Shown here one piece after another: positions 14,679-43,260 of a stretch of 64,000 nucleotides of DNA. The stretch spans positions 24,080 through 88,079 of the forward strand of contig DVLG01000035.1 in the NCBI GenBank assembly GCA_018715625.1, written 5' to 3'. The first letter of the stretch is position 1; the number at the start of each line of letters is the position of its first letter. The notes below the pieces were generated by a model. The model was not told the origin of the DNA. It saw nothing but the letters and a program-made list of their open reading frames with translations, and searched no databases. This stretch comes from Candidatus Scatovivens faecipullorum (GTDB taxonomy: Bacteria; Bacillota; Clostridia; TANB77; CAG-508). The position numbers and the translations under genes were made by a program.

Positions 14679-17600
14679 TTATTTAAGAACTTTTTTCTTA
14701 ATTACTACTATTCCTATTGCAATTACTGCAAGAGCAACAACTACAGCAGCAAGTATTTGTATTGTCATAACTGTTCCTGAATTGATACCTGTTGGAGGAG
14801 TAAATGTTACAAGTTCTGTTGCACTTGAATCTCTTTCTTTAAGAGCTACTTCAAATTCTCCAAGTGTTGGATTTGCATTACCTGGAACTGCAACTATATC
14901 TCTTCTACCAACTGAATTTTCTATTTTAACAATTTCTGCTATATTGTCATAATTTAAGTTATTTGCATCATCTTCTGCAGAAACTGTTTTTGTTATAGTT
15001 AAAACTATTTGAGATTTATAAGCATCTGCATTTTCTTTATATGGTACTAGTTTTGCTTCAAATCCTGAGTTATTCATTTGATCTGTATTTTCTTGTGTAT
15101 CAATACTTAATATTACATTATTTCTTTGGTCTGTGATATATGCAATACCTTTTTTATCAATTAATTCATATTCTGTTGTTATTACATCTGATAATAACTT
15201 ATCTGATCCATATCCACTACCAGTTAACTCTGTAACATTTGTATTTTTCCAGCTATGATCTTTTGCATTATTTAATTCTGCTGAGAATATACCATCATTA
15301 TCAACATAATCTACAATTTGACGAACTCTTGTTGTAACAACTTTATCAGCTCTTACATCATTTGTATAATAAGTTGTTCCTAAATATTCACCTGCTTTTG
15401 AAATTCCTTTGGCAGTATCTTCATAAGCTTTATTTGCAAGAAGTTTAAGAGCTTCTTTTTCTGTTCTAGGTTTAATTCCTGTAAGTTCCTCTACTTTTGT
15501 AAAGTTTTGTTCAGAAATATTTTCTAGTATTTCACTTGTTCTATCAACTTCACCAACATTTAATGCACTAACTTGATAATTAATTTCTATTGTTGTACCT
15601 TGTAATATTGTTTCATCAATATTTACATATCTGAAGTTTTGCATTCCAGAAATTTCCCTATCTGTTGGCTTTTCTTCACATTTATTAATTGCTTGCATTA
15701 CATCTGTTGCAACTGAAGAGTCAGATAATGAAACATCAGCAATTAAATATTTATTTCCTAGTTTAGTTATTATAGTCTTATCTGAAACACCTTCTAATAA
15801 ATCAGTTTCTCTATAATTAATATCATAGATTGCATTAAATATTATGTTTCCATCATTTGTAGTTAATTTAATTGAACTTATTTGTTTATCAAGAACTACT
15901 GCTGTTTCAGGTCTTTCAATTAATCCAAAATCTATGTTGTTAATTAAGTAATTTGTTCCTTCTTTTTGTACTCTAACACTTCCAGCTTCTAATACAGTTC
16001 CTAAAATTTCAGGTTTTTCTTCTACACCTTCGCCAAAGTTTTCTATAAATAAACTTATCTTTGCTGTATCTGCAAACATTGAATAATCATTATATAAATC
16101 AGTATGTTTTTCATCTAATTTATTTGCAGTTGCAAGTACTGTTCCATTTACATTTGTTATAGTTTCTGAATTTGATGTAATTTCAAGTCTTCTAGCTTCA
16201 CTATCTTTTGCATCTGAAACTCTTGCGTTTGCTAAATCAATATTATCTAAATCATGCCATTCATTGTTTACATAACCATTATCATCTACACTTGTAAATC
16301 CTGATTGATAAATTGTAGATCTATAATCTTGACCATTATAAATAGCTGCTGTTTTTCCTTCAAGATCTTTATCATAATTTGCTGTTAAAATATTGTCTTC
16401 ATCAAAACGTTCACCATTTGCTTTATATGCTTCTGGATCTCCAGAAATTTCAAATGTATCTTCTAAATCTAATTTATTGTTTCCATATAAAAATCTTACA
16501 ACATAATCTCCAACTGGAACTGATGTAAATTTATAAGAACCAACACTAGATTCATTTTCTACGTTTTCTCTTGAAGTTTCTGTTGTACTGTCAAAACCTG
16601 TTAGATATTCTAGTGTTTTTCCACCTAAAACATCTAATTGTTTACTTGTTGGCCACAAGAAATCATATTCTCTATCTCCAACTTTTATTTTTTCAACAAG
16701 TTCTGTAGTTAATCCTCCAATTAAAGCTTCATCACCCTCATCATAAAGTCCATTTCCTACTGCTGTATCTCCTTCTGGTTTATCTTCCCAAGCTAAACCA
16801 TTTATTTCTCTATTTTCTTCTACTATTGTTAATTCTAATACTGGTGCTGAATCAGTATCATCTTCATACCATGATTTTTCATTGTAGCTTCTGATGTTTA
16901 CGTTTGCTGGTGCTGAATCTCTATCTATTTTACCTGCGTTTCTACCATCAGTATAACTTGTTGAATAACTTGAAATTTCAGCTACATTTGACTTATCTCC
17001 AAGTCTAATTGTATCTTCAACTCCATCTATATTTTCTTTATCTAATGCAAATGTTACATAAATATCAGCTTTTTCTCCACTTCTTAAGCTTATATCTAAA
17101 TTTTGAGCTGTCATTTTATTATAAGTTACTCCATCAGAACCTTTGATTCCTCTTTCTGTAACATTCCATGTAACATTTTTATTTCCAGATGGTGATTCTA
17201 CATAAGAAGCGTTCGCTACTTCTGTTAATCCATTTTGTTCTGCTCCGTCTATTGTTTTTACATATTTTTCTACTTTTGTATCAATTGGATCTCCAAATGA
17301 ACTATCAAAGTAATCATCAACTGAATTTATTTTAGTAATATAATCTGGTCCTTCATTATATAAACTTATCTTATATGTTAAATAAACATCTAATTCTGTT
17401 GCATCAATACTTGTTCCTAAATCTTTATAGAATTTTTCTATTGCATCATATCCTGTTATATTAGAGTTTGCTTGATACATTTCTGCTCTGTAATAATAAT
17501 CTGTACTGTATAACCCTAATTGATATTCAATTTGAGTTGTGTCTGCATATAATTGTCTACTATAACAATCTGAACCAATATCTTCTAATTTATTAAATTT

Positions 17601-20600
17601 ATAATTTAACAACTTATCATTAACAACTACTTTAGCTGAAACTAAATCCTTAGTTGTTCCTAAATCAACTTCTGGTCTTCTCTTTAATCCTAAATTAATG
17701 TGTAATGTATAATTATAAGTTGCAGAATACATATAATATTGAACTAATCCAAGTTCATTTATATAAGTATCATAGCTTTCTAAATGAATTCTATTATCAA
17801 ATGGATAAGTTAATCCTCCAACTGATGTTCTTGCTTTAGCCTTAAATAAATCTTTTGCAGTTCCATCAGCATTTTGAGTTTGTACTTCTGAAGATATTCT
17901 TGAAGTTCCATTTGCTACTGCAGATTTTGCTCCTTCATAGAAAATGTCTTTTTCTCTTTCACTTTCCACAGCAGTACCTATTGTTTCACCTTCACCATTT
18001 ATTTCTGTTTTTCCTTTAATTTCTTGAATTCTATTATCAACTTCTTCTCTATCATAGTCTAAAGCCATAGAGTCTCTTGCCCAAGCATCTCTTCCTGAAG
18101 TTGAAGCACTTCTATAAGCATTGGCATCTCCATTTGAAGTTGCTAAGAATTTTGTTGGTTCATAAGTTTGACCATCATAAACAAATTCAATATCATAAGT
18201 TCCTGATTTTAATATTTTTACACTTGGAGCTTCCCAATGTCCACCATCTGTTGTAATTATTGGTTGACTAATTTCTTCTCCATCATCATAAATTGTTGCT
18301 AAATTTCCGTTATTATCATAAATATATACTTCAATTCCATCTAATCTTCTTTCATTGTCATCCATTATACCGTTTTCAACAGAATTTTCTGTATTTTTAT
18401 CATTTTCATCAAGTGGTGTATCTTCCCATACATCACCTGCAAGTTTAATTGTTAAATCTATAACTGTTAAAGTTTCTAATCTGTTTGAAACAACTATCTC
18501 TAAGTTATCAGAAATCTCTGCCCCATTATTTGATATGCTAACATTTTTCCAACCTTTTGGAATATTATTTTCAGTTACAGTTACTGTTGGAGCATTATCA
18601 CCCCACCATTTAATTGTTGGTGATGTATATGTTTCTCCACCTTTCAAGCTGATATTAATTACTCTTGTTGAATCAACAACACTTTGTCCATCCATTTCAA
18701 AAGTACCTGAAATTGTAACTGTCATATCAAAACTTGGAAGTTCTAATCCATCTAATAATTTTTCATCAGCAATTATTTCTTTTCTAACTGTAAAGCTTCC
18801 CTCATGCTCTTCATATTTGTTTGTTGCTACAACAGATATTGTTTGACCTTCTGGAGCCAATTTTCCTTCTGCATTATCTATTCTAACTACTTCTGTTCCT
18901 TCTGGAAGATTAATTTCTTCAACTTTATATGAAGGAGCTTCTTCTGTTACATACCATTTAAACATATCTGATTTATATGTTTGATTTGCTTTTATTGTTA
19001 CTATAAATGGCTCATATCCATCTACTGTAACTCTAAATGTAAATTCTTCATCACCAATAACACCATTTTCAACTAATTTTGTTATTTCTAAATATCCACC
19101 TGTTAATTTAGGTTCGTTTATAAATGTTGCTATTGTTGCTTCTGCTCCTGGTTTTATAGTTCCACTAGCATTTAAAACTGATATATTGTTTGCAATTTCT
19201 GATTCTAGCTCTTCTACTGTATAAGTTGGAGCTGAATTTCCATACCATTTAATTGTTCCGGAATCCCACTGACTACCGCCAGAAACTGTTATTTCTTGAG
19301 AAAATTCTTCTCCAGCAGCTTCTCCTGGTCCATATTTTGTTCCATTATATTCAAAAGCACCTCTTATAGTTACTTTGAATTTAAATTCTTGACCATTTAA
19401 ACTTTCATGAGTTACTTGTTTTTTAACGATTAAGTTTCCAGAATTTTCATTTGCTCTATTTACAAATTCATTATCTGTTGTAATTAATATTTCCCCAGTT
19501 TGGCTCTCTTTTAATTTTCCTTGTATACCATTTTCTATTTGTGTTCCGCCATCTGAAGTTGCTGATACAAATTCTGTTCCTTCTGGAAGGTCAATTTCTG
19601 TTATTGTATAGTTTGGAGCTTCCGCATCAGCTGCCCAAGTAAATGCATTTGATGTATATTCCCAAACATAAGAATCACCTTTTTTCTCTGCATTTAATGA
19701 AACCACATAAGGTTCATATCCATCTACTGTAATTTGGAATTTAAATACTAAAGAATTTATATATTCAGTAGACATTCCTTGTGCATTTTCTAGTGTTTTT
19801 ATAATATGAAGATATCCTGCTTTTGGAGTTATGTCTCTATTCCAAGCTGTTACTTTTACTGTGTTTGTACCTTCTGATACATCAGCTAAAGTACCTTTAG
19901 AAGGTTCAACTGATGAAGCAATATCTTCTGCAAGTAAATTCTCTTCTACTGTATATTCTGGAGCCATTTCTCCATTCCATGTAAATTCATCTGAAGTCCA
20001 TACAGTAGGGGCGTCTACACTACTTACTTTTATTACAACAAAACTATTTTCATCATAAATATCGTTTGTTATTTCTACTGCTGAATCATTTGTTAATTGA
20101 ATTTTGGTTCCTGGTCCATAAGTTTGACCTTTATATGTGAAACTTCCTTTAGAAGTTACTGTTACCACAAACTTAAATTCTTTATCAACTAATGTATCTG
20201 AATCTATATGTTTTGTTATTTCAATTCTACCTGAATGAGGTTTTTCTATTCTGTTTACAATGTTATTTGTAACTTCAAAATCTTTTGTTTCATCACTAAC
20301 TAAAGTTCCTGTAATTGTTTGTCCATTTACTGTTATTTGTACATCATCACTTGTTGCTGTAACAAAACTTGTTCCTTCTGGATTATCAACCTCTGTTATT
20401 GTATAATTTGGATTATTTCCAGCAAACCATTCATAATATCCAGATGTATATTCCCAAACATAAGAATTATCTTTTCTTATTGGTGAAATTTCAATTCTTT
20501 GTTTATCATATCCATCCACAGAAATTTCAAAATTAAATTTTAATTTCATTATTTCTTCTTCAGAATATAATTCTGCATTTTCTAATGTCTTTATAATATG

Positions 20601-22922
20601 AATTTTTGCTTTTTCTATTGTTTGCTCATTTATTGCTGTTACTGTTACTGTTTCATCATCAGATAATCTACCTGAACTTGGTGTTATAGAAATTAACTCA
20701 GCAAATTCTGAACTTAACTCTTCAACTTTATATTTAGGAGCTGTTTCTCCATACCATTTAACATTTCCTAAATTCCATTCTCCTCTTCCATTATTAATTG
20801 TAATAGAAGCATCTATGGTAGTTGAAGCATCATTATATTTTTGTCCATTATATTTAAATGTTCCACTTAAAGTTACTTTAAAGTTAAAAGTTTTACCCTC
20901 TAAATTACTTTCTTTTCCATTTAAAATATTTTTATCTATTTTCTTTACGATTTTTAAGTTACCAGTATGCTCTCCAATATTAGTAGCTTTTACCTTTACT
21001 GTTCTTCCATCTCTTAATTCTCCTGAAGCATTTTCAAGGTCTAATTGTTTAAAACCATCTTTGTCAATTTCTTCAACAGTATAAGTTGGATTTCCATTTT
21101 CAACATTCCAATAATATGTTTTAGTAGTTGCTGAACGTCCAGCTTTAACTCTTATTATATCTGAGCCCCCATTTATAGCACCATCTACATTAACTCTGAA
21201 ATAGAAGAATTTGTTTACGTCTTTTACTTCTTCTCCATCTTCATCAACTACTTCTTTTTCTATTCTAATTTTTCCACTTCTAATATCTAATCTTCTATCT
21301 AAATGAGTTGTATTATACCATCTTGCTGCTTTTAATCCACCAGCTAATTGTTGAGAAGTCTTTTCAACTATATCTTTATCCGAATATTCTACCCAATAAT
21401 CAGTTGATTCAACATGTGGTTTATATTGTCCATGTTCACAAGGTGTTCCTCCACTACAGCTATGATGAGATATATTTTCTCCACTACCAGTAGTCCAACT
21501 ATGTGCACCTGTTCTTCCATGTGAACAAGTATGACCATCTGTACACCAATTTTGTTTTTCTTTTGCAGTCCAAGTTACCTCATTATAAGTTCCTCTTAAA
21601 TCTTCATATTGTCCTCCAGCATTCATATACCTAAAGTCAAATGATAGATTTGTTATCTTAGTTAAATTTTCTTTATCTTTTAATGCTATATAAAATACTT
21701 CATTTTCGTGTGGAAACTCATATGTATCATCTAGTTCTCTTTCTCCATCTAGCCATACAAAACTCCAATCAACATTTCTTACTAATGCTTCTTCTGAAGC
21801 ATCAGTATACAATTTTGCATCTGTTATACCTGCAAATTGTACTGCATTTCTACCTTCAACTTGTGCTCCGGCTTCAACATAGTTAATAGAAAAAGGTCCA
21901 ACTTTATATTCACCTAATTCACTATCCCATGTTACTGTTGGAGTATTTAAATCATAATTGTTTGAATTATTAATAGCTTTATATGAATCATTGTCATTAA
22001 AACTAACTTTATATTCTAATTCTGGAGCTTTTACTGTTCCTTTAACACCATTTACTTCAAATTCAGTATCAACAAAATCTGCTGTATTCATAGATTTAGC
22101 TATTCTTGAAATATACGTTTCAAAAGCCCTTGCCTCCTCTGTCAATCCATTTGCTGGAACTGGGTTACTTCCAGCTGCTAAGTTATCTGTATTCCACCAA
22201 GCTCTTTGAACATAAGAATATACGCCCCATCCTTGATCAGTGCTTTCTTCAACATAATAATATTTTCCATCCGTATCTTGTACAACAAGTGTTTCTTTTC
22301 CAACTCCACCTTCAATTACGTAAACTGTCAAATCTCCTGCCGTAGTTGCAGTTGCATTAGCTAATGCTTCTGTGTCGGTAAATTCTATCTTATTACCATG
22401 TTCATCACCTAAGAATTTCAATCCACCATTTTCAAAATTTGGAAGATTATTAATCATTTCAGATAATATATAAGCTTCCATTGGAGTAGCAATTCTTACA
22501 TCATTTACAACATATTTTCCATAAGTCTTATTCATATAAGTACCTTGTTTGAATGGTGTTTCTGTATTTTCTCCTTCAAGGTTTACTTCGAATAATTTTC
22601 CTCCACCGTCTCCTTTTTCAATAGTTCCGGTATAGCTTGGGTCAGAGCTTCCCATTTCTGTTACTAATGTAGCTCCTCCATCTCCTGTTAATGGAGTTCC
22701 ATGAGAAGAACAAAATATTTCATATCTTTGAACTAAATCATTATAAGTTAAATAATCTTCAGCGCCAATTTGACCGTTTGCCATACCTGGTCCTTCTGAT
22801 TCCATCTCATCTGTAATTTCTTGTGCATAAGTTTTATAAATTATAAAGGTGCTTAACAATAATAGTATAATTGCTAAAGCTAATATTAAAATTTTATTAG
22901 AATTTTTTATGATTTTTTTCAT
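14679..22922 (-). CDS. giant surface protein B2 (2747 aa): signal peptide, putative thioester (TED-like) head, Cys/His-rich insert, eight CnaB/SpaA-like domains, SdrD-B-like domains, TPPTG sorting signal plus TM plus KKK tail
   Basis: A single uninterrupted ORF. ATG 22922 (MKKIIKNSNKILILALAIILLLL...AQE) lies 4 nt after the B1 stop, with the GGAGGTG RBS inside the last B1 codons. The GTG at 22934 in the ORF track is part of that RBS. See the findings for motifs. Confidence 0.9.
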   Translation of the reverse strand: MKKIIKNSNKILILALAIILLLLSTFIIYKTYAQEITDEMESEGPGMANGQIGAEDYLTYNDLVQRYEIFCSSHGTPLTGDGGATLVTEMGSSDPSYTGTIEKGDGGGKLFEVNLEGENTETPFKQGTYMNKTYGKYVVNDVRIATPMEAYILSEMINNLPNFENGGLKFLGDEHGNKIEFTDTEALANATATTAGDLTVYVIEGGVGKETLVVQDTDGKYYYVEESTDQGWGVYSYVQRAWWNTDNLAAGSNPVPANGLTEEARAFETYISRIAKSMNTADFVDTEFEVNGVKGTVKAPELEYKVSFNDNDSYKAINNSNNYDLNTPTVTWDSELGEYKVGPFSINYVEAGAQVEGRNAVQFAGITDAKLYTDASEEALVRNVDWSFVWLDGERELDDTYEFPHENEVFYIALKDKENLTKITNLSFDFRYMNAGGQYEDLRGTYNEVTWTAKEKQNWCTDGHTCSHGRTGAHSWTTGSGENISHHSCSGGTPCEHGQYKPHVESTDYWVEYSDKDIVEKTSQQLAGGLKAARWYNTTHLDRRLDIRSGKIRIEKEVVDEDGEEVKDVNKFFYFRVNVDGAINGGSDIIRVKAGRSATTKTYYWNVENGNPTYTVEEIDKDGFKQLDLENASGELRDGRTVKVKATNIGEHTGNLKIVKKIDKNILNGKESNLEGKTFNFKVTLSGTFKYNGQKYNDASTTIDASITINNGRGEWNLGNVKWYGETAPKYKVEELSSEFAELISITPSSGRLSDDETVTVTAINEQTIEKAKIHIIKTLENAELYSEEEIMKLKFNFEISVDGYDKQRIEISPIRKDNSYVWEYTSGYYEWFAGNNPNYTITEVDNPEGTSFVTATSDDVQITVNGQTITGTLVSDETKDFEVTNNIVNRIEKPHSGRIEITKHIDSDTLVDKEFKFVVTVTSKGSFTYKGQTYGPGTKIQLTNDSAVEITNDIYDENSFVVIKVSSVDAPTVWTSDEFTWNGEMAPEYTVEENLLAEDIASSVEPSKGTLADVSEGTNTVKVTAWNRDITPKAGYLHIIKTLENAQGMSTEYINSLVFKFQITVDGYEPYVVSLNAEKKGDSYVWEYTSNAFTWAADAEAPNYTITEIDLPEGTEFVSATSDGGTQIENGIQGKLKESQTGEILITTDNEFVNRANENSGNLIVKKQVTHESLNGQEFKFKVTIRGAFEYNGTKYGPGEAAGEEFSQEITVSGGSQWDSGTIKWYGNSAPTYTVEELESEIANNISVLNASGTIKPGAEATIATFINEPKLTGGYLEITKLVENGVIGDEEFTFRVTVDGYEPFIVTIKANQTYKSDMFKWYVTEEAPSYKVEEINLPEGTEVVRIDNAEGKLAPEGQTISVVATNKYEEHEGSFTVRKEIIADEKLLDGLELPSFDMTVTISGTFEMDGQSVVDSTRVINISLKGGETYTSPTIKWWGDNAPTVTVTENNIPKGWKNVSISNNGAEISDNLEIVVSNRLETLTVIDLTIKLAGDVWEDTPLDENDKNTENSVENGIMDDNERRLDGIEVYIYDNNGNLATIYDDGEEISQPIITTDGGHWEAPSVKILKSGTYDIEFVYDGQTYEPTKFLATSNGDANAYRSASTSGRDAWARDSMALDYDREEVDNRIQEIKGKTEINGEGETIGTAVESEREKDIFYEGAKSAVANGTSRISSEVQTQNADGTAKDLFKAKARTSVGGLTYPFDNRIHLESYDTYINELGLVQYYMYSATYNYTLHINLGLKRRPEVDLGTTKDLVSAKVVVNDKLLNYKFNKLEDIGSDCYSRQLYADTTQIEYQLGLYSTDYYYRAEMYQANSNITGYDAIEKFYKDLGTSIDATELDVYLTYKISLYNEGPDYITKINSVDDYFDSSFGDPIDTKVEKYVKTIDGAEQNGLTEVANASYVESPSGNKNVTWNVTERGIKGSDGVTYNKMTAQNLDISLRSGEKADIYVTFALDKENIDGVEDTIRLGDKSNVAEISSYSTSYTDGRNAGKIDRDSAPANVNIRSYNEKSWYEDDTDSAPVLELTIVEENREINGLAWEDKPEGDTAVGNGLYDEGDEALIGGLTTELVEKIKVGDREYDFLWPTSKQLDVLGGKTLEYLTGFDSTTETSRENVENESSVGSYKFTSVPVGDYVVRFLYGNNKLDLEDTFEISGDPEAYKANGERFDEDNILTANYDKDLEGKTAAIYNGQDYRSTIYQSGFTSVDDNGYVNNEWHDLDNIDLANARVSDAKDSEARRLEITSNSETITNVNGTVLATANKLDEKHTDLYNDYSMFADTAKISLFIENFGEGVEEKPEILGTVLEAGSVRVQKEGTNYLINNIDFGLIERPETAVVLDKQISSIKLTTNDGNIIFNAIYDINYRETDLLEGVSDKTIITKLGNKYLIADVSLSDSSVATDVMQAINKCEEKPTDREISGMQNFRYVNIDETILQGTTIEINYQVSALNVGEVDRTSEILENISEQNFTKVEELTGIKPRTEKEALKLLANKAYEDTAKGISKAGEYLGTTYYTNDVRADKVVTTRVRQIVDYVDNDGIFSAELNNAKDHSWKNTNVTELTGSGYGSDKLLSDVITTEYELIDKKGIAYITDQRNNVILSIDTQENTDQMNNSGFEAKLVPYKENADAYKSQIVLTITKTVSAEDDANNLNYDNIAEIVKIENSVGRRDIVAVPGNANPTLGEFEVALKERDSSATELVTFTPPTGINSGTVMTIQILAAVVVALAVIAIGIVVIKKKVLK

Positions 22923-22926
22923 ATCA

Positions 22927-25900
22927 TTAAACACCTCCTTTTCTCTTTGCTAATACAATTTTATTATATGCTATAAATATTACTATACTTCCTAATAATA
23001 TTGTTGTTATAATTACTGAAATATATATGAATGTTTCACCAGTTTTTGCAGAAATAATTACGTCTGCTGAACCTATATCATTTTCACCTTGTGCTTTATT
23101 TGCTGGTGTTGAGTTAATATCTGAAATACCATATATATTGTAATCTTCATAAATTTCTGCTAGGTTGTTAGTAAGTCCTATATTTTCTTCTGTTACTTGT
23201 TTTGTTAAAACTAATTTAACAGATGCTGACTCACCAGGTTTTAATTCTCTTTCTGCAAGTTCTGCTGAATATAGATTTCCATCAGATCCTGTATACCAGC
23301 TTGCATTTGCTTCTAATCCAGAATTAAATGTCATTCCTTCTGGCATATAATCTATAATTTGTTTTGCATATCCTGCCACATCACCTTCATTTGATACTGT
23401 AATTGTATATTCTACATATACAACAGATCCATATAAATGTTTAGCAGCAATTTCTGTTTTGGCTAATGTTACATTATCATATTCATCATTTTGAGTTCCT
23501 GTAGCAGATTGTGTTGTTACTTTAGTTATAGTTTTGTCTAATTTTAAATCAAATTTATCTGCTAAAACTAAACCAATATCTATGCCAGATGTACTACCAT
23601 TTGAAATAGTGATAACTTCTGTAATAGCACCATTTCTTGTTTTACCATCTTGTTCTAATTTTGTTGTTACAGCATCTGAGTTAACATTTATATCTACTCC
23701 GTCTTTTTTATAAGCTGTAACTGTATATTTTACTGTATCATACTCAAAAATTACTAAGTAGTCTCCATTTTTTACTCCTGAAAATGTGTATGAACCATTT
23801 GCATCTGTTGTTACAGACGTTTGAATTGCACCAGATTGACTATCAACTAATCTAACAATTATTCCTGATAATAATTGCTCATCTGTTGTTCTCATACCAT
23901 CTTTATTACTATCAAGCCAAGCTGTACCTGTTAATTTATATGTTTTTTCAATATTACTACTTCCATAAGAATTATTAGAACTTGAAGATGATTGTAATGA
24001 GCTTGCAACAAAAGATTTTCCAGCATTTTCTATTATATGAGTAATTTCATTAGTTTTTTGTGGCTCATTATTTTCTGCAGTTACTGTAGCAGTATTAGTA
24101 ACTGTTTTTTCTTGAACACCATTTAAGACACTTGCTACTGCCTGAACAGTTACTAATACTTCAGTATTTGGATTAATAGCTAAATCTACTAAAGCTTGAT
24201 CATTTGCTGAAATATTTTTCTTATTTACTACTCCATCAATTGTATAACTTATACTTTTTATATTTAAACCATCTGGAATTTCATCTACTAATCTAACTTG
24301 TTTTGCTTTTACACTACCTTCATTTTTTATAGAAAAAATATATTCAATAACTTCTCCTTCTTTTACATATGTTTCTGTAGTTGATGTAGTTTGAGATACA
24401 CTAATTAAAGGAACTCCTATACTAATCGGTACATTATTTGAAGTATATGTATCGGTATCTTGTGCTTTTACATTTGTATAATTATCTAATGTTGTCTCAA
24501 TTTTGCCTTCCTGTAATTTATTTCCTTTTATAACATAACTTAAGTCTGCATATCCATTAACTTCTAATGTCCCTATATTCCATGTAATAGTTCTTGTTGA
24601 AGCATCATAACCTACATTTTCTAAATTGCCATTCATATCAGCTGAAATAAATTCTAATTCTTCTGGTAAAACTTTAGTAGCTACTACATTATTTTGAACT
24701 TTAGAAGAAGTATTTGCAATTGAAATGCCAAACTCAAATTCATTTCCTAATGGTTGAGTTGCAGACGTAAAAGCAACATCTCTAGAATATTCTTTAATAT
24801 AAAATTCAGATTCTTTTAAATTAATGTATTTTTTCTCTGTCTGTAACTCAACATCTAAATCTTTTGCAGTTACACTAGAAAAAATTTCTATTTTTACATC
24901 TGGAATAGAGGTAATTTCAGTATCTTTATATCCAATTACTTCTCCAGTATCTTCACTATTTTCTATTTCTTCTAATGTCTTATCATATTTTCTAATTACG
25001 TATATTCCATCTTCTCTTTGGAAAAAGCCTTCTGTTCCTGCATAATATTGTTCTATAGTTGGTAATTCTTTTGCTGACAAAGTAATTTCTATTTCTGTGT
25101 TTTCGTCTTTTTCTAATCCTGGAACATTAGCTACTATATTTCCGTTTATTTCTTCTATTTTCACATCTTCTTTTTCACAATAAGCATTTTTATAAATTGT
25201 AAAATTTGGAACTGGCGTAGTTACTATTATATTCTCAGCTCTATTTTCCCCAATATTTGAAACTTTAACTTCTACTTTAAATTCCTCTTCAACTTTTACT
25301 GTTTCTTTATCTAATGAAACTTCTAAGTTTAATTCAGGTCCTTCTCCAGTTGTTAAACCAATTTTATCAGGAGTTGCTTTTTCGTCAGTTTTTGCTATTT
25401 CTGAATTATTTGTATAATATGCTAAAAATGTTCCATAGATATTTTCATTATGAGTTAAATTTGCAGGAATTTCATATTGATATGTAAATCTTAAAATTGC
25501 TGTTTCTTGCATTTCATAATTTTCATCTTGAGGTACTATTAAGTATGATTTTATATTTTCAAAACTTGTTGGGTTCATTGTCCAACCATTTTCTGAATTA
25601 TTTAAATCATTATTTGCTTCTCCATTTTCAGAATAGTAAATATTAAATGCTACTCCATTTCTTTCATCAGAAACTATAGGACCAATTAGTTTTGTATCTA
25701 ATGTTGTACCTAAGTCTTCTCCTGTTTCTATATCTTTTACTCCTTTAAAAGGAATTCTACCTAATATAGATACATCTGAAACTGTATTTTCATTGTTGTT
25801 CATTACAACAATTTCCATTGTTGCAGCTTTTGCTTCTGAATAAATATCAATTAAATCTTCTTTTACACCTTGTCTTACAGATGTTGTAATTGAACCTACT

Positions 25901-28329
25901 GTATTATAATTTGATGTACTATTTACTGCTACTAGTCCTGTTGGAGCAGAATAATTAATTGGTAATTCAGTATATCCACTATTATCCAAATTTGTAGCTT
26001 CACTATTTGTATATCTTAATTTAATAATATCTGATTTTGCTGGTGTATATAAATCTACTTTTATATCTGCATTTATTACTATATTTGTACCATTTGTTAA
26101 CACACCAGAATTTATTCCTTCTTGGTTACCATCAATTGTAACTCTTATTATTCTTCCAGTTACTTCTGTATTTATTATATCTAATCCTTCACCATAAAGT
26201 ACACTTGCATTTGTTACTACTAAATTTTGAACATATTCTGGTAATTCTATTTCAAAAACTGAATTTCCATACACATCTGATACATCAGTAGCATTATTTA
26301 ATTCTATTCTTAGTTCAACATCATTATTTGCAAGTGTTGAAAGGTTTGATTTGTCTATAATTAAATTAGCTTTTGTTGTTGTATCTATTAAATTTGTTAC
26401 AACTTCTGCTGTTCCTACATCAACTCTAGTTTCAACATATTCATATTCTGCTGACATAGCTGAAGTTGTTTTAATTGATGATAAATTAGCAAAATTTGCT
26501 TTATCAATAGACGCATTTGTATATGCTTTAACATTATTAATTACTAAGTTTCCTTCACCTACTGGTTTAGTAAGTTCAAAAACTAATTTTGAAGGTTTAT
26601 TTTCAAAATTTACTATTATATTTCCTTCTTCGTTTACTGCTGTTTCATTATTAATTGTAGAAATTAAATTTCCAGAAATATCTAAAATTTTAATTTCACC
26701 AGTTTCACCTAAAACTTTTGTAAATTCTTCTTTATTAATTGAAATTTGTTTATAATATAAATCATTATTTTCAATAGAATTTCCAGCTTTATCTACATAT
26801 AAGTTATCTCTGTCTTCTATTCTAATATTTTTTATAATATCTTTATAAGAAATATTAGCAACAGTTTTAGAAATTAATTCAACTTCATATTTTCCACTAT
26901 TTTTATAATTTAAATATGTATAAGCTTTTGAAACATCTAGAGTTTCATTTTCTATATTTAAAGATACTATATTTCCTGTTTGTCCTTGAAGAACATATTC
27001 AAAATTGTTGTTATTTGTTATTAAATTAGAATTTTCTTCTTCGTTTGCACCACTAAACATTGTTACTTTAGCTTCTATATTAGAATTAATAGTAATTCCA
27101 TCTACTGCTTTTGCATTTTCAAAAGTATAAGTAATTAAATATTCATCAATACCTGAACCGCTAAAATATCTGTCTTCTTTAACTACTTCTTTGTTTGCAT
27201 CTTTTAAGTATTCATCTTCAAATTCATTTACTTCAACATTTTTCTTTGGATTAGTAACCTTTAATATTATTTTGTTTTCATCAGCATTATATGTCCAATT
27301 GTTTTCATTAAATGTTAAATTTCCAACTGTTTCTCCATTGGTTCCTGAAGTAGAATTTGCAACTACTGTAACATTTGATGGCTTTATTCCTTCAAAATTT
27401 GGTACATCAATTACAACTTCTGATTCTTTAATTGGTAAAGTATTTTTATCTGTAGTTGTATCAACTTTTACTAAAGTTTGTAATATAACTCCTCTACCAA
27501 AATCTATATATTTTGTAGCTTCACTAGATAATTTTACTTCTCTTTGATCTTTCCAAGCAATATTTAAATTTACTCTTTTTGATACTTCTATTTCATCACC
27601 ATCATCATCAACGTATATACCTGTGAAAATTACTGCACAATCTTTTGATAATTTATTTTCATTTACATACATTTCATTTTTGTATTTTATTGGTAATGAA
27701 AGTTTAACTTCTGAAGAGTTATTAACTTGTTTTAAAGAAATTACATTGTTTTCTAAACTTTGAACATATTCTGGTAATACTTCATGAGCTGAATTTTCTT
27801 CGTTTTGTTCTGCATTTTGTTCCAAGTTTTCTTCTATCTGTTTCTCTTGTTCTGAAGTTTCTCCTTCTGCAGATGTCTCTTGTGTAACCTCTGCCTGCTC
27901 ATTGTTTACCTCTTGAACTTCTTCAACATTTTCTTCACTTTCATTTGAAGTTTCTTCCTGGTTTTCTGTAACTTGAGCTTGTACTTCTTCAAAACTTCCG
28001 ACTTCAAAGTTTAAACCTTTTCCCTCCTCAGTTTCTGCAATTTCTATTTTTGCATCTTTTAGATATCCACTTTCTTTAACATCTAATTTCATGCCAATAG
28101 ATAATTCCTCGTTATTTACATCACTAATAACCGAATCTGTTTTACTTTCTTCGGTTCCAAAATAAGCTTCAAATTCAACATTTTCATGTCCTGTATCTGA
28201 ATCTGACGCAAAAAAGGTTTCTGCAAAACTTGCTGCATAACTCTTAGTTACAAATGCAAAATTTGCAAAAGTTAGTGTAAATATTAGGATTATTGCCAAC
28301 AATTTTTCTAGAATTTTGTTTTTTAGCAT
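22927..28329 (-). CDS. giant surface protein B1 (1800 aa): signal peptide, acidic spacer, DUF11-like repeats, SdrD-B-like domain, SAKTG plus TM plus basic tail
   Basis: ATG 28329 (MLKNKILEKLLAIILIFTLTFANFAFVTKSYA) is preceded by GGAGG. The 38 codons upstream in the ORF track cover the promoter and leader. DUF11-like segments include GEVIEYIFSIKNEGSVKAKQVRLVDEIPDGL. The SdrD-B-like segment is TGTAWLDSNKDGMRTTDE...TDANGSYTFSGVKNGDYLV. Confidence 0.9.
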   Translation of the reverse strand: MLKNKILEKLLAIILIFTLTFANFAFVTKSYAASFAETFFASDSDTGHENVEFEAYFGTEESKTDSVISDVNNEELSIGMKLDVKESGYLKDAKIEIAETEEGKGLNFEVGSFEEVQAQVTENQEETSNESEENVEEVQEVNNEQAEVTQETSAEGETSEQEKQIEENLEQNAEQNEENSAHEVLPEYVQSLENNVISLKQVNNSSEVKLSLPIKYKNEMYVNENKLSKDCAVIFTGIYVDDDGDEIEVSKRVNLNIAWKDQREVKLSSEATKYIDFGRGVILQTLVKVDTTTDKNTLPIKESEVVIDVPNFEGIKPSNVTVVANSTSGTNGETVGNLTFNENNWTYNADENKIILKVTNPKKNVEVNEFEDEYLKDANKEVVKEDRYFSGSGIDEYLITYTFENAKAVDGITINSNIEAKVTMFSGANEEENSNLITNNNNFEYVLQGQTGNIVSLNIENETLDVSKAYTYLNYKNSGKYEVELISKTVANISYKDIIKNIRIEDRDNLYVDKAGNSIENNDLYYKQISINKEEFTKVLGETGEIKILDISGNLISTINNETAVNEEGNIIVNFENKPSKLVFELTKPVGEGNLVINNVKAYTNASIDKANFANLSSIKTTSAMSAEYEYVETRVDVGTAEVVTNLIDTTTKANLIIDKSNLSTLANNDVELRIELNNATDVSDVYGNSVFEIELPEYVQNLVVTNASVLYGEGLDIINTEVTGRIIRVTIDGNQEGINSGVLTNGTNIVINADIKVDLYTPAKSDIIKLRYTNSEATNLDNSGYTELPINYSAPTGLVAVNSTSNYNTVGSITTSVRQGVKEDLIDIYSEAKAATMEIVVMNNNENTVSDVSILGRIPFKGVKDIETGEDLGTTLDTKLIGPIVSDERNGVAFNIYYSENGEANNDLNNSENGWTMNPTSFENIKSYLIVPQDENYEMQETAILRFTYQYEIPANLTHNENIYGTFLAYYTNNSEIAKTDEKATPDKIGLTTGEGPELNLEVSLDKETVKVEEEFKVEVKVSNIGENRAENIIVTTPVPNFTIYKNAYCEKEDVKIEEINGNIVANVPGLEKDENTEIEITLSAKELPTIEQYYAGTEGFFQREDGIYVIRKYDKTLEEIENSEDTGEVIGYKDTEITSIPDVKIEIFSSVTAKDLDVELQTEKKYINLKESEFYIKEYSRDVAFTSATQPLGNEFEFGISIANTSSKVQNNVVATKVLPEELEFISADMNGNLENVGYDASTRTITWNIGTLEVNGYADLSYVIKGNKLQEGKIETTLDNYTNVKAQDTDTYTSNNVPISIGVPLISVSQTTSTTETYVKEGEVIEYIFSIKNEGSVKAKQVRLVDEIPDGLNIKSISYTIDGVVNKKNISANDQALVDLAINPNTEVLVTVQAVASVLNGVQEKTVTNTATVTAENNEPQKTNEITHIIENAGKSFVASSLQSSSSSNNSYGSSNIEKTYKLTGTAWLDSNKDGMRTTDEQLLSGIIVRLVDSQSGAIQTSVTTDANGSYTFSGVKNGDYLVIFEYDTVKYTVTAYKKDGVDINVNSDAVTTKLEQDGKTRNGAITEVITISNGSTSGIDIGLVLADKFDLKLDKTITKVTTQSATGTQNDEYDNVTLAKTEIAAKHLYGSVVYVEYTITVSNEGDVAGYAKQIIDYMPEGMTFNSGLEANASWYTGSDGNLYSAELAERELKPGESASVKLVLTKQVTEENIGLTNNLAEIYEDYNIYGISDINSTPANKAQGENDIGSADVIISAKTGETFIYISVIITTILLGSIVIFIAYNKIVLAKRKGGV

Positions 28330-28394
28330 AATCTTAATTCCTCCTACAACAACAATTTGGCATAGTATCAACTTTACTATAATTATATAAGTAT

Positions 28395-28422
28395 ATTCTA
28401 CTCTTTTTTTAAAAGTAGTCAA
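28395..28422 (-). promoter_or_regulatory. sigma-A promoter candidate for cassette B (B1-B2)
   Basis: On the minus strand: TTGACT (complement of 28417-28422), a 16-nt spacer, then TAGAAT (complement of 28395-28400). It lies about 60 nt upstream of the B1 ATG. The spacer block AAAAAGAGTA is shared with the cassette A promoter. Confidence 0.45.
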
Positions 28423-28911
28423 TAGAAAAAACCTTTGTAACACAAGGATTTCATGTTTTTATTTTCATTATCATTTACGGATTAACTATTTTAGCAAACT
28501 CCCGCTATGAAATATAAAATTTTCATTACATAAATCCTTTTATATAAGCCTTTTCCACCAGAAACTATACGTTATCTATTATATACCATTATGTAAACTT
28601 TTTCAAGGCTTTTTACATTATTTTTTGACTTTTTTTCAAAAAAAATTTAATTTAGTATTCCCTGTTTTAAATACTTTTCTGTCTTTTTTTGTCGAATAGT
28701 ATATTTTAATTTCAATTTTACTTGTCTATAATAATTTAAAAAGGAATTTTATATTGTTTTTAATAATTTCATTTTAAATTTACCGTCCTATTTTTTATAG
28801 AAATTTTATATTCTCACTTTTTAATATTACAATTTTATTTACAAATCTTTAAAAAATTACAAAGAGTATATTTGCGTAGCCAAAATAAATTTATTCAAAA
28901 AAATATTGTAT

Positions 28912-28953: not shown

Positions 28954-31900
28954 TTATTTATAACGTCTCTTTTTGATTTTTGTAATTGTTACTTTTGTTA
29001 CAATTACTACTAAAGCTACTACGGCTACTACGATTGCTACTACTATTATACTTGTTCTTGCTGTCTCAACTGTATTAACAATCATTCTTCTATTTCTCAT
29101 TAAACCTGTTGGAGGTGTTAATGTAATTGTTTCTGTTGCTGCAGTATCTGATTCAAAAGATGCTGTTACAAATTCCTCGCTACCAATTTCTGGTTTATCT
29201 TGTGCTGCTTCCATGTTAACATCAGCATTACCAATTGTTGTAGCAAAGTTTGTTCTTCTACCTGTTAATGTTGTAAATTGTATAATCTCTGCCATGTTTT
29301 CATAAGTCATATCTTCTGTATCTGCTTCTGCTGATACTACTTTAGATACTGGTAAGTATACTGTACCCATAGAATAATGATAATTTGTAGTATCTGGATC
29401 TGTTACTTTTGGTAATAAGAATCTTGCCAAATCTACGTTATTTACTTGATATTTATCTTGAGCTTCTTCAATATTTGTTTGAACATTTCTTGAATACTCA
29501 TCATCTCTGATTCTATCATCAACTGATACAACTAGGTTCTTATATTCTATGCCTTTAGTATTTGTTAGTTTAACATTAGTTGTAATATCTTCTCCTATAG
29601 CATAATTTTCAGTTGTCTCATTGTTTGTATTTTGTTCATCTGTTTTATTTTCTTCTTTATTGTTATTTCCTTCAACAAGGTCTCTTACTGCTAATACATG
29701 ATTTACTAATTCTGATGTTGTACTTCTTCTCCAGTACTTACTTAATAATTTATCATCACTTGTTTCTTGTTCAAACTCTAGGTCTGTGTCAACATAGTCT
29801 AATATCTTATCAAATTTCAAGCTTGCAATTGTATCTAAGTTAGTATCTTTTCCAGTATAATATGCATATCCTACATATCTACCAAAATATCCACCGTCTC
29901 CTGCTGGCTTATTATTTGCATCAGTTTCATTAGTAATTGTTTTCTTCATGTTTCTGTATAAATCTTTATTTTCATCTAGTGCATAAGTATCTGCATAAAT
30001 AATATTTCTTGCTGTTCCTGAAGCTGTATAATCTTTATCTATAATATTTACACCTTTACCATTATATGCATTGATTAAATTAATTGTTGCATCATTTTCT
30101 TTATATCTGATATCATCAAGATTTTCTGTGATTCTATCTACCTCACTATTGTTTTGTGCTTTAAATTTATAAGTAATTTCTATTTTAGATCCTTGTAAAA
30201 TATCATCATCTATTTGTAAGTAAACAAATCCTTGAAGTTCTTCTGTTGCAAGTCCTGATAGTAGGGCTGTATAATCATTTGAAATGAATTGTACTAAGTC
30301 AAGTCCTACTGATTTTTCCATATCTAAGTGGTGAGTTGCATGTTCGCCTTCACCCTCTGTATAGAAGAATAAGTCAGCTAATGTTTCTCCATCTTCTGTT
30401 GTTATCTTCATTTCATCAATTTCTTTTAATAAGCTTATTTGTGATTCAGGTCTATATTCAACACCAAAGTCTACGTTTTCAATCTTGAAGTCCCTAGCAT
30501 TGTTGTCTGCATATTGCATAGCTTCTAGTTCTTTATAGTAAATTTCATTTGCTAAATCTTCAGCTGTACCATTTCCTAAATCAACATTTGTTCTTACAAT
30601 ATATTTTGATGTTTGCTCTTGTGTTAATTTCTCAGTTTTTACTAAGAATTCAACTGTTTCAGCATTCATATATGTGTTTTCTGTTAATGCTTTTAATTGA
30701 TCCACATCATTTGCTCTAGATATTGGTGTCATTTCTTCAATTCCATTTGCAACACCTTTTAGAATTTCTGCAAGTTCGTTTGTCATAACTTCTGAGAATC
30801 TATTAACTTCTAGTCTTCTAATTTCATCATCTCTAGCATCTGATTTGTTTACAACCTCTAATTGTTTAATTATTTCATCAACATCTGTTTCTGTATCACT
30901 TAAATCTGTTGTATATTTTGTTGATTTATAATCTTGACCATTAAAGATTAACATATCTTTTTGAGCTTCAATATCTGGGTTATATGTTGTAGAATTTTTG
31001 TTTTCTTCAACTGTATCACCATAAGTAAATCTTACAACATATCTACCTGGAACAAATCCTTCAAGTTCATAATTACCATCTGTATCTGTTCTTGTATGTT
31101 GAACTTGCTTCCATGTAACATCACTTAAGATTTCTTCATAATAATGAATTTGATTATTATTATTTGCATCTTTTGCATAGTTACCGTTTTCATCACGTAC
31201 TGGAATATCAACAATTTCAACAAATTCTGCTCTTGCACTTCTAACTTTAATATCCTTTTCTTCTGTTTCTGAACCATCTTTGTAGTTAATTTCTACGTTT
31301 TGATTCATTTTGCCATCATTGTTTTTCTGCTTATCAGGATTATAGTTACCATCACCAATATATTGTGTTTCTCCAGCTTCTCCTAAAGTTTCTGTTCTAG
31401 AATCATCCCAAACCATACCAGAAATACTTCTTCTAATATCTGGTGTATTCTGAACTTCTACAATAATGTTATTTTTACTGTATTTTTCTGTTATTATTTC
31501 TTTTGTATTTACTGTTGCATCTGCAACAAGTTCAATACCTGTTTTATATGTCATATCTTCATAGTAGTCTATATTATCTGCAGAGGTTTCGCTTTCAGCA
31601 TATCCTCCACTTCCAGGAATTACTCCTGTGCTATCATTTTTGATACCAATGTTACCAGCATTTGAGTCCATATCTACAAGTGAAGTTGGTTTTCCATCTG
31701 TGTACCAAACTGAGTAAGCATTAACTTGTGCAATGTTTTCTGTACCTCTACCGAATTTATTTTTGAAATCTGTTGCTACATTTTCAGCTATTTTTAAAGA
31801 TCTCTCTAAAGTTGTTGTTTTTGTAGTAGTTGTTGAACCACTTTCTTCTCCTGTTGTTATTGATCCATTTTCTTTTTCTTCAGTATTAGAACTTGCACTT

Positions 31901-34900
31901 GATGTTGAAGATTTTGTTTCTTCATAATTTTCATTTGTAATACCTACTTCTAAAGCTTCTTTATCAAGTACATATTTAACATAAATATCTAAATCTTCTC
32001 CTTCATGGATAATCTCATTCTCCATACCTCTAATATATACTGTGTTATATCCATCAGCTTCAAAGTTATTTTTCTTTTCAGAATATGTACCTAAAGCTCC
32101 TCTTGAAGAAATATTTGATAATGTTAAATCAATTTTTACATAATTTCCTGCAGGATCTTCTTTATAAATTGGTTTTGCTCCTGCTGCTACTTCTGTAGGA
32201 TTTTCAATACTATATTTTGTTCCATTTGCAGCATCTCCTGCTTCGCTTGCTTCTTTAAAGTACCAAGCCTCAGCAATCTTAATTGGTTTATCAACTAAGA
32301 AGCCATTATCATCTTTATTTTTTACAACTACTGTATTTGGAGATCCAACTGTTGGATTTGGAACACTTACCATATTTCCATTTTCATCAAATTGTATTTG
32401 AACAAAGTTCTTGTCATATATGTCTAGAATTTCATGTATCTTAACATCTAGTTTAGTATCAGTTACAGGAGGATTTTTACCTTCATAATTTACAGTATCA
32501 TCATCAGTAACTGCTTTATTATCAACTGTTATTCTATATGTTACCTCAACATTTAATTCACTCTCACCATTTATACCTTTATACTCTCTAACTGCTTGTG
32601 CTTTATATTGCTCAAATCTGTATTTATAGTCAGATTCATATAACTCTAAACCATAAGGTTTTGAAATTATATAATTTTGTAAATATGGATTTTGATCTGT
32701 AGCTTCCATATCACCATTTAAACCATTGTTTTGGTTGTAGTTGTATTCCATTTCTTCACCATCAATAGTTGTTTTTACTTTATAAACATCTTTTGTTAAT
32801 GCAATATCAACATCTTCTCTTAACTCTAAACCTAAATTGATGTGTTTTAAGTATTCAGTTTCTGGTTTTTCATTATTTTGAGCTCCTCCAAATGGATATA
32901 ACCATAAGTAGTTAGTTGAATTTGCATCATTTTTATTTGAAGGAACATTTATAAAGCTTCTTGCTGTCATTAATCTTGAGTTATCTTCCATTAATTGTGA
33001 AGTGTGTTCAGTCTTATCAAAAACTAATTCATTAGTTTTATTAAATCCTAAATCATAAGCTACATTATATGAAATGTATTCATATTTTGTATTAAATTGT
33101 TCTCTTACATCTGTAAATTCAGCTGCATTAGAATCAATCAAATATTCTTGTTCAAAGCTTCCATCATCTTTTAGATGTTTCTTACCATCTGTTCCAGCAT
33201 AGAATTCTGTACTCTTATATATAACACCATCATATTCGTATTCTATATAATAACTTACATATTTACTATTTGCTGTGTAGTTTCCATTTGCATCTTTATT
33301 GTCAGCTTTGTCAACACGTTGATATGTTGTATTTAATGAGAATCCTGTGTCATGATTATATGTACCATACCAGTTTAAGTTCTCATCTCTACCAAATGTA
33401 TATAAACCATTTTGGTCTGTTTTGGTTGTTCTTAATAATGTACCATCTGATTTATAAAGATGAACAATTACATCTTTCTTTCTAGCATCTTGGTTAACAT
33501 TATAGTATGCTTGTTTTGTAGCATCAACATCTTTGTCTGTCATAAATCCATCTCTATCAAAGTCTACCCAAACATTACCTGCAATTACTAAGTCTTTCAT
33601 TCTTACGTATTCTTTTGTTTCTTCTTGTTTAGAAATGTTTTCATCATGATTTGGATTTCTAACTTCTCTATTATTATCATCTGTATGGTTAATGTTAGTT
33701 AGTATTGTTAAGTCAGCTCTGTTCTCTAAATCATATAAATACATATTGCTTTCTGTAACTTCTACAGTTACATAGTAAATAATGTATTCACCTGGATTTA
33801 AGATTGTTTCATTTCCAATAGTGTATTCATATTTGTTGTAATTTCTTCCGTTTTCACTAATTGCTGATGGAGCTGAAACATTAACATTCACTTTTCCATC
33901 ACCATTATATCTTGTACAAACACTACCATCACTATTATACATTACAGCTTCAACAGATTTTTGAGTTAAACCAACCTCCATTTTATCTGTAACTTTAGTT
34001 GTTCTAACTTGAGTTGCTGGTTTTGTACCAGAACTTAAAGATTTATTAACTGTTGTTGCTTCATTTGTAATCTTAATAGCATATACAATTGTTTCATATT
34101 TTTCAACTGAAACTGGATGTTCTTTCTTATAAGTGTCTTTGTTATTTGGTTCTCTCACTCTATCATTTACATTTCCATCAGATAAAGTACTATATTGTTT
34201 ACTGTCATTCATTCTTGAAGTTTTTAAAGTACCATCATTATTTGTAATTATACCATTATTTGTAAATGAATTGTTATTGTTTTCTTTTTGTATTTTTTCA
34301 TCATAAGTATAAATGTATTTATCAACAAATGTGTTATAGTTATTTATTTTGTAATAATCTTTTGTTTCTGTTCTTATTGGGTTATTTTTAATAACATCAT
34401 ATTTATCATCAACTGTTGAAGTCTGTGCTGTTCCTCTATTGATGTTTCTCATTTCTCCAATAAATTTAACACTATTTGTTTCAACAGTTCCTTTTGTATA
34501 TTCATCTACTGTTAAAGTAACTGTTATTGTTCTAGTACCATTTGCTGGAATCATCAAGTTTTTAATTGTGAATTTTCCACCATTTGTACTACTATCAGTC
34601 TTAGATATTGTATAAGATTTGTTTCCTGGTATTGTTGTACCACTTACAGTAATATCTAAGTTAGAATATTTTTTAGGTAATGTATCTTCTATATCTACAT
34701 AAACCTTATCTGGTTTCCAATATGGAGCATTATTATAATCTATCTTAGAGTCATATTTATTTGTTGTATTATAAACTATTATCTTATATGTAATAGTATC
34801 TCCATATTCTGCGTATACTGGATTAGCTTTTTTAGCATCTTCTGTTACACCTTTTGTTATAGATCTTTGATCTGTTGCTTTTAAGGTTGTATCTATACTG

Positions 34901-43170: not shown

Positions 43171-43231
43171 ACAAAACTCCTTTTCTTTAGAATCTGGACG
43201 CAATACGTCTACTTTTTTATTTATATATAAA

Positions 43232-43260
43232 ATATTACTCTTTTTCAAAAACTTTGTAAA
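43232..43260 (-). promoter_or_regulatory. sigma-A promoter candidate for cassette A (A1-A2)
   Basis: On the minus strand: TTTACA (complement of 43255-43260), a 17-nt spacer, then TAATAT (complement of 43232-43237). It lies about 55 nt upstream of the A1 ATG. Confidence 0.45.

Follow-up and report, generated by a model that had tools for sequence, protein, structure and literature searches.

No bacterial adhesins other than thioester domains (TEDs) are known to attach to their targets covalently, and TEDs are under development as tools for protein ligation. TEDs have three motifs: a Cys motif, a Gln motif on the C-terminal β-strand Q, and the motif T-Q-x-x-hydrophobic-W on helix α2 (Miller et al., 2018, PMC6194298). 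The strand Q residue is the bond-forming Gln, and it lies in a weak hydrophobic-Q-hydrophilic-hydrophobic-hydrophobic pattern. The Gln and Trp of the helix motif adjoin the bond and form hydrogen bonds with the Cys backbone, yet are dispensable for bond formation; the universally conserved residues are the bonding Cys and Gln only (PMC6194298). In Class I TEDs (SfbI-TED, Cpa, CpTIE, and PnTIE; Walden et al., 2015, PMC4450167), an isopeptide bond with a Lys of the target replaces the Cys-Gln thioester, and the bond-forming Gln follows the Cys by about 130-150 residues. The Class II TEDs of the TIE proteins (BaTIE and SaTIE-TED as well as EfmTIE86-TED, PMC6194298; pLS20 TIE, PMC8092201) form the N-terminal head of a protein with an immunoglobulin (Ig)-like stalk and a sortase-type C-terminus, have about 170-200 residues between the two bonding residues, and carry a β-sandwich after the third helix where Class I has a linker of ~10 residues. 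Here, we compare with these systems the product of gene B2, located at 14679..22934 on the minus strand of a 64,000-nucleotide stretch from Candidatus Scatovivens faecipullorum (contig DVLG01000035.1, positions 24,080 to 88,079; hereafter "the window"). We put at roughly one in two the probability that the head of this protein (~the first 550 residues) is a strongly diverged, unannotated relative of the Class II TEDs, in which Cys75 would be bonded to Gln528 with the assistance of Gln243 and Trp247, and which would serve covalent adhesion from the tip of a sortase-anchored stalk.

In the list of open reading frames (ORFs) and their translations, B2 comprises 2751 amino acids counted from a GTG codon. 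Residue numbers used here follow that count; from the ATG at 22922-22920, which is probably the real start, each would be 4 lower. The protein has the architecture of a TIE-type fibrillar adhesin, that is, a signal peptide, an N-terminal head, an Ig-like stalk, and a sorting signal with a transmembrane (TM) helix and a basic tail. Its order is a signal peptide (22824..22922, minus strand, residues 5-37, MKKIIKNSNKILILALAIILLLLSTFIIYKTYA, as read from the sequence; the homologues begin with a like M-x-K...hydrophobic pattern), an N-terminal module of ~520 residues, the repeated Ig-like stalk, a conserved C-terminal region of ~1100 residues, the pentapeptide T-P-P-T-G, the TM helix and K-K-K. 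T-P-P-T-G (14787..14801, minus strand) resembles a sorting signal and is followed by the TM helix and K-K-K-V-L-K, and the genome has nine sortase-domain genes. Judged by these features, B2 is probably a secreted surface protein anchored by a sortase, with the N-terminal head, Ig-like stalk and sortase-type C-terminus that are also found in the TIE proteins. Domain matches in the paralogues, one of which is A2 (28954..37257, 2767 amino acids), are to SdrD_B, DUF11 and CarboxypepD_reg.

The residue on which the proposed chemistry centers is Cys75 (codon 22710-22712). As the initial annotation of this locus had stated, it lies in the motif Y-E-I-F-C-S-S-H-G (22698..22724, minus strand, residues 71-79); the models place it at the end of a predicted strand. 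We counted conservation over 99 aligned homologous heads, and Cys75 was found in all 99, with Gly79 in 94. B2 contains 7 Cys in its 2751 residues, and because Cys75 is the sole Cys in residues 1-463, it is not a disulfide partner within the head; an invariant Cys that stands alone in this way points to chemistry rather than structure. We also sought homologues lacking the Cys to see which Gln goes with it, and there were none, the apparent losses being shifted motifs or truncated gene calls. The Cys motif of TEDs, [YFL]-C-hydrophobic-hydrophilic on an N-terminal strand, is matched by the family consensus [LF]-C-[CS]-Q, with Gln or Glu at Cys+2 in 57 of the 99 heads. The remark in the initial annotation that the Cys context departs from the published motif is thus correct for the F-C-S-S of B2, an outlier that departs at +1, but not for the family consensus L-C-C-Q-K-G. 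Extended to L-C-C-Q-K-G-T-x-L-P-G, this consensus has the same spacing from C to P-G as Y-C-L-N-A-N-K-S-F-P-G in the canonical TED family of this genome, which is described below.

The initial annotation further held that both paralogues keep the Cys, the following His-Gly and the Gln block, and that C-x-x-H-G may mark a variant subfamily. The Cys, the Gly and Q-x-A-x-W are indeed retained, but His78 is not: position Cys+3 is Lys in 60 heads, His in only 29 and Arg in 4, and His is fixed only in the A2 subfamily. C-x-x-H-G therefore does not define a subfamily, since most members have Lys. Nor is His-Gly after the Cys foreign to known TEDs, as had been thought, since Y-C-I-K-H-G is present in a canonical Pfam TED (L019) from a related genome. 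Covariation of the kind that the initial annotation had proposed to look for did not rise above background when Cys+3 (H or K) was compared with Gln+1 in the Gln block.

Gln243 (codon 22206-22208) was likewise correctly placed, 168 residues after Cys75, in Y-S-Y-V-Q-R-A-W-W (22194..22220, minus strand, residues 239-247). The fit of its context to Q-x-A-hydrophobic-W is borne out across the family, in which Gln243 and Trp247 occur in 99 of 99 heads and Ala245 and Trp246 in 98 each; Cys75 and Gln243 are thus both kept in every homologue aligned. V-Q243-R-A-W-W corresponds to the helper motif T-Q-x-x-hydrophobic-W on the second helix of TEDs (in the form T-Q-x-A-hydrophobic-W), with V for T and W-W for hydrophobic-W, and is a predicted helix (model residues 204-210); Gln243 is helical in both of our AlphaFold models. 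It is preceded by the first of three conserved helices, T-P-M-E-A-Y-I-L-S-E-M (22455..22487, minus strand, residues 150-160; predicted helix at model residues 114-125), in which P151 is invariant and E153, A154, L157 and E159 are found in 96, 97, 95 and 98 of 99 heads, respectively. The third, L-T-E-E-A-R-A-F-E-T-Y-I-S-R-I-A-K-S (22092..22145, minus strand, residues 264-281; predicted helix at model residues 226-244), has E267, A268, F271, E272 and Y274, each in at least 94 of the 99. We scanned all six-frame ORFs of at least 100 amino acids in the 1.88-Mb genome (639,106 residues), and C-x-x-[HK]-G followed 60-320 residues later by Q-x-A-[LIVMFW]-W was found only in B2 and A2. Q-x-A-[LIVMFW]-W by itself occurs 4 times, namely in B2, A2, one other ORF, and a Pfam-positive TED protein, L002.

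L002 (contig C65) is one of two Pfam-positive TED proteins in the genome, the other being L001 (contig C31), a pilin-like protein of 436 amino acids encoded directly downstream of a sortase gene. L002 has ~1290 amino acids and a DUF11 stalk, matches PF08341 at 23.9 bits, and carries the NCBI family name "Cys-Gln thioester bond-forming surface protein". Across 40 members, its family, which is the canonical one used for our comparisons, has invariant C96, Q202/Q203 (V-V-Q-Q-Y-A-I-W-Y-F-T), G299-P300 (in a Y-x-V-G-P-F sandwich) and Q397 (V-Y-Q-P-V-V). The Cys, the Gln block, the Y-x-V-G-P-F sandwich and a later Gln hence follow one another in the same order as in B2. Unlike B2, the L002 family is recognized by Pfam, has half the length and no Cys/His insert, and its upper lobe is not demonstrably similar to that of B2.

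The β-sandwich of B2 (21549..21938, minus strand, residues ~333-462) follows the helices and reads Y-K-V-G-P-F ... F-Y-I-A-L ... F-R-Y-M-N-A-G-G. It is all-β in the second model, and G346 and P347 within it do not vary among 50 full-length homologues. With a hidden Markov model (HMM) built from the canonical TED family, the sandwich of one B2 relative, P0185, scores 18.5 bits and that of A2 13.4 bits, compared with decoy maxima of 2.9 bits for reversed and 6.2 bits for 1130 locally shuffled sequences. B2 itself is tied to this homology through family membership, as its head profile matches A2 with E = 3.1e-17 and P0185 with 1.8e-17. The resemblance of A2 to the canonical family extends beyond the sandwich: a DUF11-type domain ~25 residues after the hairpin Gln of A2 is homologous to the domain ~22 residues after Q397 (26-45 bits; decoys ≤9.8).

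Between the sandwich and the C-terminal hairpin lies a variable insert rich in Cys and His (21414..21545, minus strand, residues 464-507; 4 Cys and 7 His), which has a low predicted local distance difference test (pLDDT) score and low alignment occupancy. The corresponding insert of the A2 subfamily (A2 residues 456-542) is longer, and its invariant C460, C535, H537 and C542 suggest a metal site. The hairpin itself (21279..21416, minus strand, residues ~507-552) reads Y-W-V-E-Y ... S-Q-Q-L-A-G-G-L-K-A-A-R-W-Y, is predicted as strands at model residues 470-479 and 485-515 with a pLDDT of ~90, and contains the candidate bond-forming Gln528 (21351-21353, minus strand) in S-Q-Q-L-A-G-G. In members that have the hairpin, Gln528 is present in 101 of 103; L530, G533, W539 and Y540 are conserved at 92%, 84%, 95% and 91%, respectively. 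The pattern S-Q-x-L-A-x-G resembles the canonical Q-[DT]-hydrophobic-hydrophobic-x-G.

A2 offers a second view of the same arrangement. Although its head is only ~22% identical to that of B2 and its first stalk domain is DUF11-type, unlike that of B2, it shares F-C-A-Q-H-G (C91), L-Q-H-A-L-W (Q233), Y-K-V-G-P-F, the Cys/His insert, A-Q-D-A-F-S-G-A-G (Q558) and T-P-P-T-G. Gln558, the equivalent of Gln528, is 97% conserved, and conservation of all three residues, C91, Q233 and Q558 (A-Q-D-G-F-A-G), was seen in 35 A2-type proteins that form an independent set. The only two Gln conserved across both paralogue subfamilies are the one on the helix (Q243 in B2, Q233 in A2) and the one in the hairpin (Q528 in B2, Q558 in A2).

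Two AlphaFold models of the head were available, with pLDDT values of 80.7 and 76.6, the latter (model 2) covering residues 38-575. In model 2, the chain passes through early strands, one of which ends at Cys75, the T-P-M-E-A-Y-I-L-S-E-M helix, a variable β insert, the Q-x-A-W-W helix and a long helix, and then through the Y-K-V-G-P-F sandwich, the low-confidence Cys/His loop and the long Gln528 hairpin. This is the order of elements described for Class II TEDs (PMC6194298). Model residues 70-90 of the N-terminal lobe rise from a pLDDT of ~60 to ~90 once the hairpin is included, and because of this gain in confidence, the models suggest that the hairpin packs back onto that lobe. On these predictions, B2 would share with the Class II TEDs an early-strand Cys, a Q-x-A-hydrophobic-W helix, a sandwich after the third helix, and a hairpin with a conserved Gln. 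It differs from them in its much larger head, with 453 residues from the Cys to the hairpin Gln, and in its variable inserts and the Cys/His-rich loop before the hairpin, and its bond is a proposed one. With the Class I TEDs it has in common the Cys motif, the T-Q-x-x-hydrophobic-W motif, and the proposed chemistry.

Combining these observations, we propose the following mechanism. The head would consist of an N-terminal β lobe bearing Cys75 and of three helices, the second with V-Q243-R-A-W-W, followed by an inserted β-sandwich with its Cys/His-rich loop and by a hairpin that would return Gln528 to the N-terminal lobe. After folding, the thiol of Cys75 would attack the side-chain amide of Gln528, ammonia would leave, and a buried Cys-Gln thioester would result, with Gln243 and Trp247 hydrogen-bonded to the Cys backbone beside it. 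Held far from the cell on an Ig-like stalk of ~2100 residues, the head would then meet a target amine, and the thioester would be exchanged for an intermolecular isopeptide bond, by which the cell would become covalently tethered.

A number of results weigh against this proposal. The TED models PF08341 (Pfam), TIGR03934 and NF012162 matched neither B2 nor A2 nor any of 42 heads at E up to 1, and the sandwich of B2 taken alone gave no significant match to the canonical family HMM, the significant cases being A2 and P0185 only. Aligned by HHalign with the canonical family, neither the head nor the sandwich nor the complete module scored above block-shuffled controls, and the upper-lobe HMM alone reached 7.2 bits compared with a decoy maximum of 15.4. 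Foldseek searches with both models against 350,542 PDB chains returned nothing at E ≤ 0.001, and their top 50 contained no TED; the β-barrel and three-helix bundle of solved TEDs were thus not recovered, though the predicted order of elements is compatible with them. This silence of Foldseek is real negative evidence. Lastly, a clade of about a dozen clusters (P0080-P0083, P0088, P0092, P0093, P0133, P0136, P0142, P0143, P0146, P0147, and P0149; for example, P0081 and P0133) retains both Cys75 and Gln243, yet the position of Gln528 is occupied by T, K, I or N. In these proteins, the bond may have been lost and the Cys kept, Gln243 may act as the partner, or the Cys may have some other function. 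The clade also has a different domain after the sandwich.

Further searches were silent as well: model 2 against BFVD with Foldseek (nothing at E ≤ 0.001), Pfam and NCBIfam with whole proteins, N-terminal pieces and the 42 heads (no TED and nothing consistent), and PDB sequences with the head, either as a single sequence or as a 42-row profile (no match). The canonical family, too, matches no solved TED by sequence or profile, and for this reason, we give little weight to the silence of B2 at the sequence level. As the match to a curated model and the similarity of fold were both tested and neither was found, we do not file B2 as a member of the TEDs, although it probably works like one. The TED reading of the initial annotation survives in part: it is backed by the invariant lone Cys, by Q-x-A-W-W and by the position at the end of a sortase-type stalk of giant length, but no TED model or solved structure matches.

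Several apparent matches were discarded on inspection. An HHalign alignment of the B2 family with the canonical TED family (P = 0.004) was collinear and placed Q243 on the helper Gln, but its score was equaled or exceeded by at least 10 of 30 block-shuffled templates; for the head and for the sandwich, each aligned separately, 8 of 60 shuffles reached the score. An HMM of the A2 subfamily aligned F-C-A-Q-H-G with F-Y-C-L-N-A at 14.9 bits, mostly on account of the signal peptide, without which the upper lobe scored 7.2 bits. HMM cross-searches that matched canonical TED ORFs at E ~1e-9 proved to be stalk-to-stalk, arising from stalk repeats in the profile.

The initial annotation had paired Cys75 with Gln243. 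In that case, the head would still be a thioester domain, of a variant kind in which the helix-borne Gln would have become the partner, and the role of Gln528 in the hairpin would be purely structural. No polar residues other than Cys75 and Gln243 are invariant throughout the subfamilies, the clade that lacks a hairpin Gln among them, just as the bonding Cys and Gln are the sole residues conserved throughout the TEDs, and the helper Gln of known TEDs is already directly beside the Cys (PMC6194298). The distance between Cys and Gln would not separate a helper from a partner, because both adjoin the Cys in known TEDs. What speaks for Gln528 instead is that Gln243 occurs in a predicted helix, in a motif that is not the partner and is dispensable in solved TEDs, that one Gln on the helix and another after the sandwich are both retained in the canonical family of this genome, and that the hairpin Gln is conserved in both paralogue subfamilies. 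We consider the pairing with Gln243 quite improbable; with Gln243 in a helper motif and Gln528 in the C-terminal hairpin, the annotation had probably chosen the wrong Gln. Both the sequence motif and the models make it more likely that Gln243 is a helper than that it is the bond partner.

A more serious challenge, though one we still hold to be rather unlikely, is that the head is not a thioester domain at all but a head for adhesion or ligand binding whose fold has not been described. Cys75 would then be free, metal-binding or redox-active, and Q-x-A-W-W a core-packing motif whose likeness to TEDs is due to chance, or to very distant descent followed by loss of the chemistry. In its favor are the absence of a matching TED model, a solved TED or a profile-profile signal above controls, and the clade that lacks a hairpin Gln. 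Vicinal C-C at the position of the Cys, seen in 60 of the 99 heads, and the possibly metal-binding Cys/His-rich loop of the same module also fit. It is less easily reconciled with three TED-like motifs in the canonical order, with a sandwich module common to a recognized TED family, or with the lone invariant Cys, for which a chemical role is suggested. Metal binding in particular finds no counterpart among the head columns conserved at ≥85%, which include no invariant His, Asp or other metal ligand. The same lack of an invariant His or Asp for a dyad or triad in the 99 heads argues against a cysteine peptidase, a transglutaminase or an N-acetyltransferase-like enzyme with Cys75 as its catalytic nucleophile, an idea that we regard as extremely improbable. 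It could draw on the invariant Cys with a basic residue at +3, and on arylamine N-acetyltransferases that Foldseek returned as weak matches (E about 1-2, probability ≤0.1); however, the +3 residue is more often Lys than His, those matches are far from significant, and no peptidase or transglutaminase family was matched. We rejected the peptidase and transglutaminase assignments because the Cys is not accompanied by the invariant His (with Asp or Asn) seen in papain- and transglutaminase-like enzymes.

If the head does form a thioester, the current Pfam and NCBIfam models overlook an entire family of metagenome clusters (184 at 90% identity, about 115 at 50%), all of it functionally unnamed, and the domain would span a broader structural range than the two classes described so far. 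A natural test of which residues the chemistry needs would come from the clade that keeps the Cys and the Gln of the helix but not that of the hairpin. A bolder version, which we think unlikely, is that the B2/A2 family is a third TED class, far larger than Classes I and II and missed by all current models, with a Cys/His-rich loop, possibly metal-binding, where the chain returns to the reactive lobe and a partner that differs by clade (Gln528 in most, Gln243 where Gln528 is absent), so that the warhead would have been rewired in evolution. If no thioester forms, the family instead has a head of new fold, in which one reactive Cys is invariant, on proteins that are among the largest surface proteins of gut or rumen-type Clostridia.

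Relatives of B2 number 184 (clusters at 90% identity, from a search of 5.8 billion proteins), all of them 1.6-3.2 kaa (thousand amino acids) long and none functionally named. An exhaustive head-profile search of 1.84 billion representatives gave only 115 clusters (50% identity). Within the class to which this organism belongs, 1 of 200 sampled genomes (this genome only) had a match to the head profile, and 15 of 150 had one to PF08341.

The gene directly upstream of B2, B1 (22927..28443, minus strand, 1838 amino acids), encodes a protein with DUF11/CLIPPER and SdrD_B domains, and its 3′ end holds the ribosome-binding site of B2. This site, GGAGGTG, is 9 nucleotides upstream of the ATG at 22922-22920 (window 22920-22945, minus strand, AAAGGAGGTG), inside the last B1 codons, and the TAA stop of B1 is 4 nucleotides before that ATG. 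This arrangement makes it probable that translation of B1 and B2 is coupled and that B2 does not begin at the GTG at 22934.

The window contains two such cassettes, A1-A2 (37270..43248 and 28954..37257) and B1-B2 (22927..28443 and 14679..22934), both located between minC and spoIIE in the chromosome (27% G+C) of a sporulating member of the Clostridia. Two other metagenome contigs (L028, 613-13650; L029, 4918-18610) have a single cassette between the same two genes, in the order minC, a DUF11/SdrD_B partner of ~1690 amino acids, the giant gene and spoIIE, and the cassette is thus doubled in the window (14679-43248). The giant-gene island comes directly after minC (43997-44602), with no minD or minE in the window, and the same holds for L029. 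Genes bearing dockerin and leucine-rich repeat domains are found near the cassette in the L028 and L029 contigs.

The C-terminal ~1100 residues of B2 (window 14679-18400, residues ~1500-2751) matched no Pfam family. They are better conserved across the family than the head, and include the motifs Y-D-V-E-F-x-Y-D-G-Q-T-Y-E-P-T, G-G-L-T-Y-P-F-D and L-G-L-Y-x-T-D-Y-Y-Y-R-A-E.

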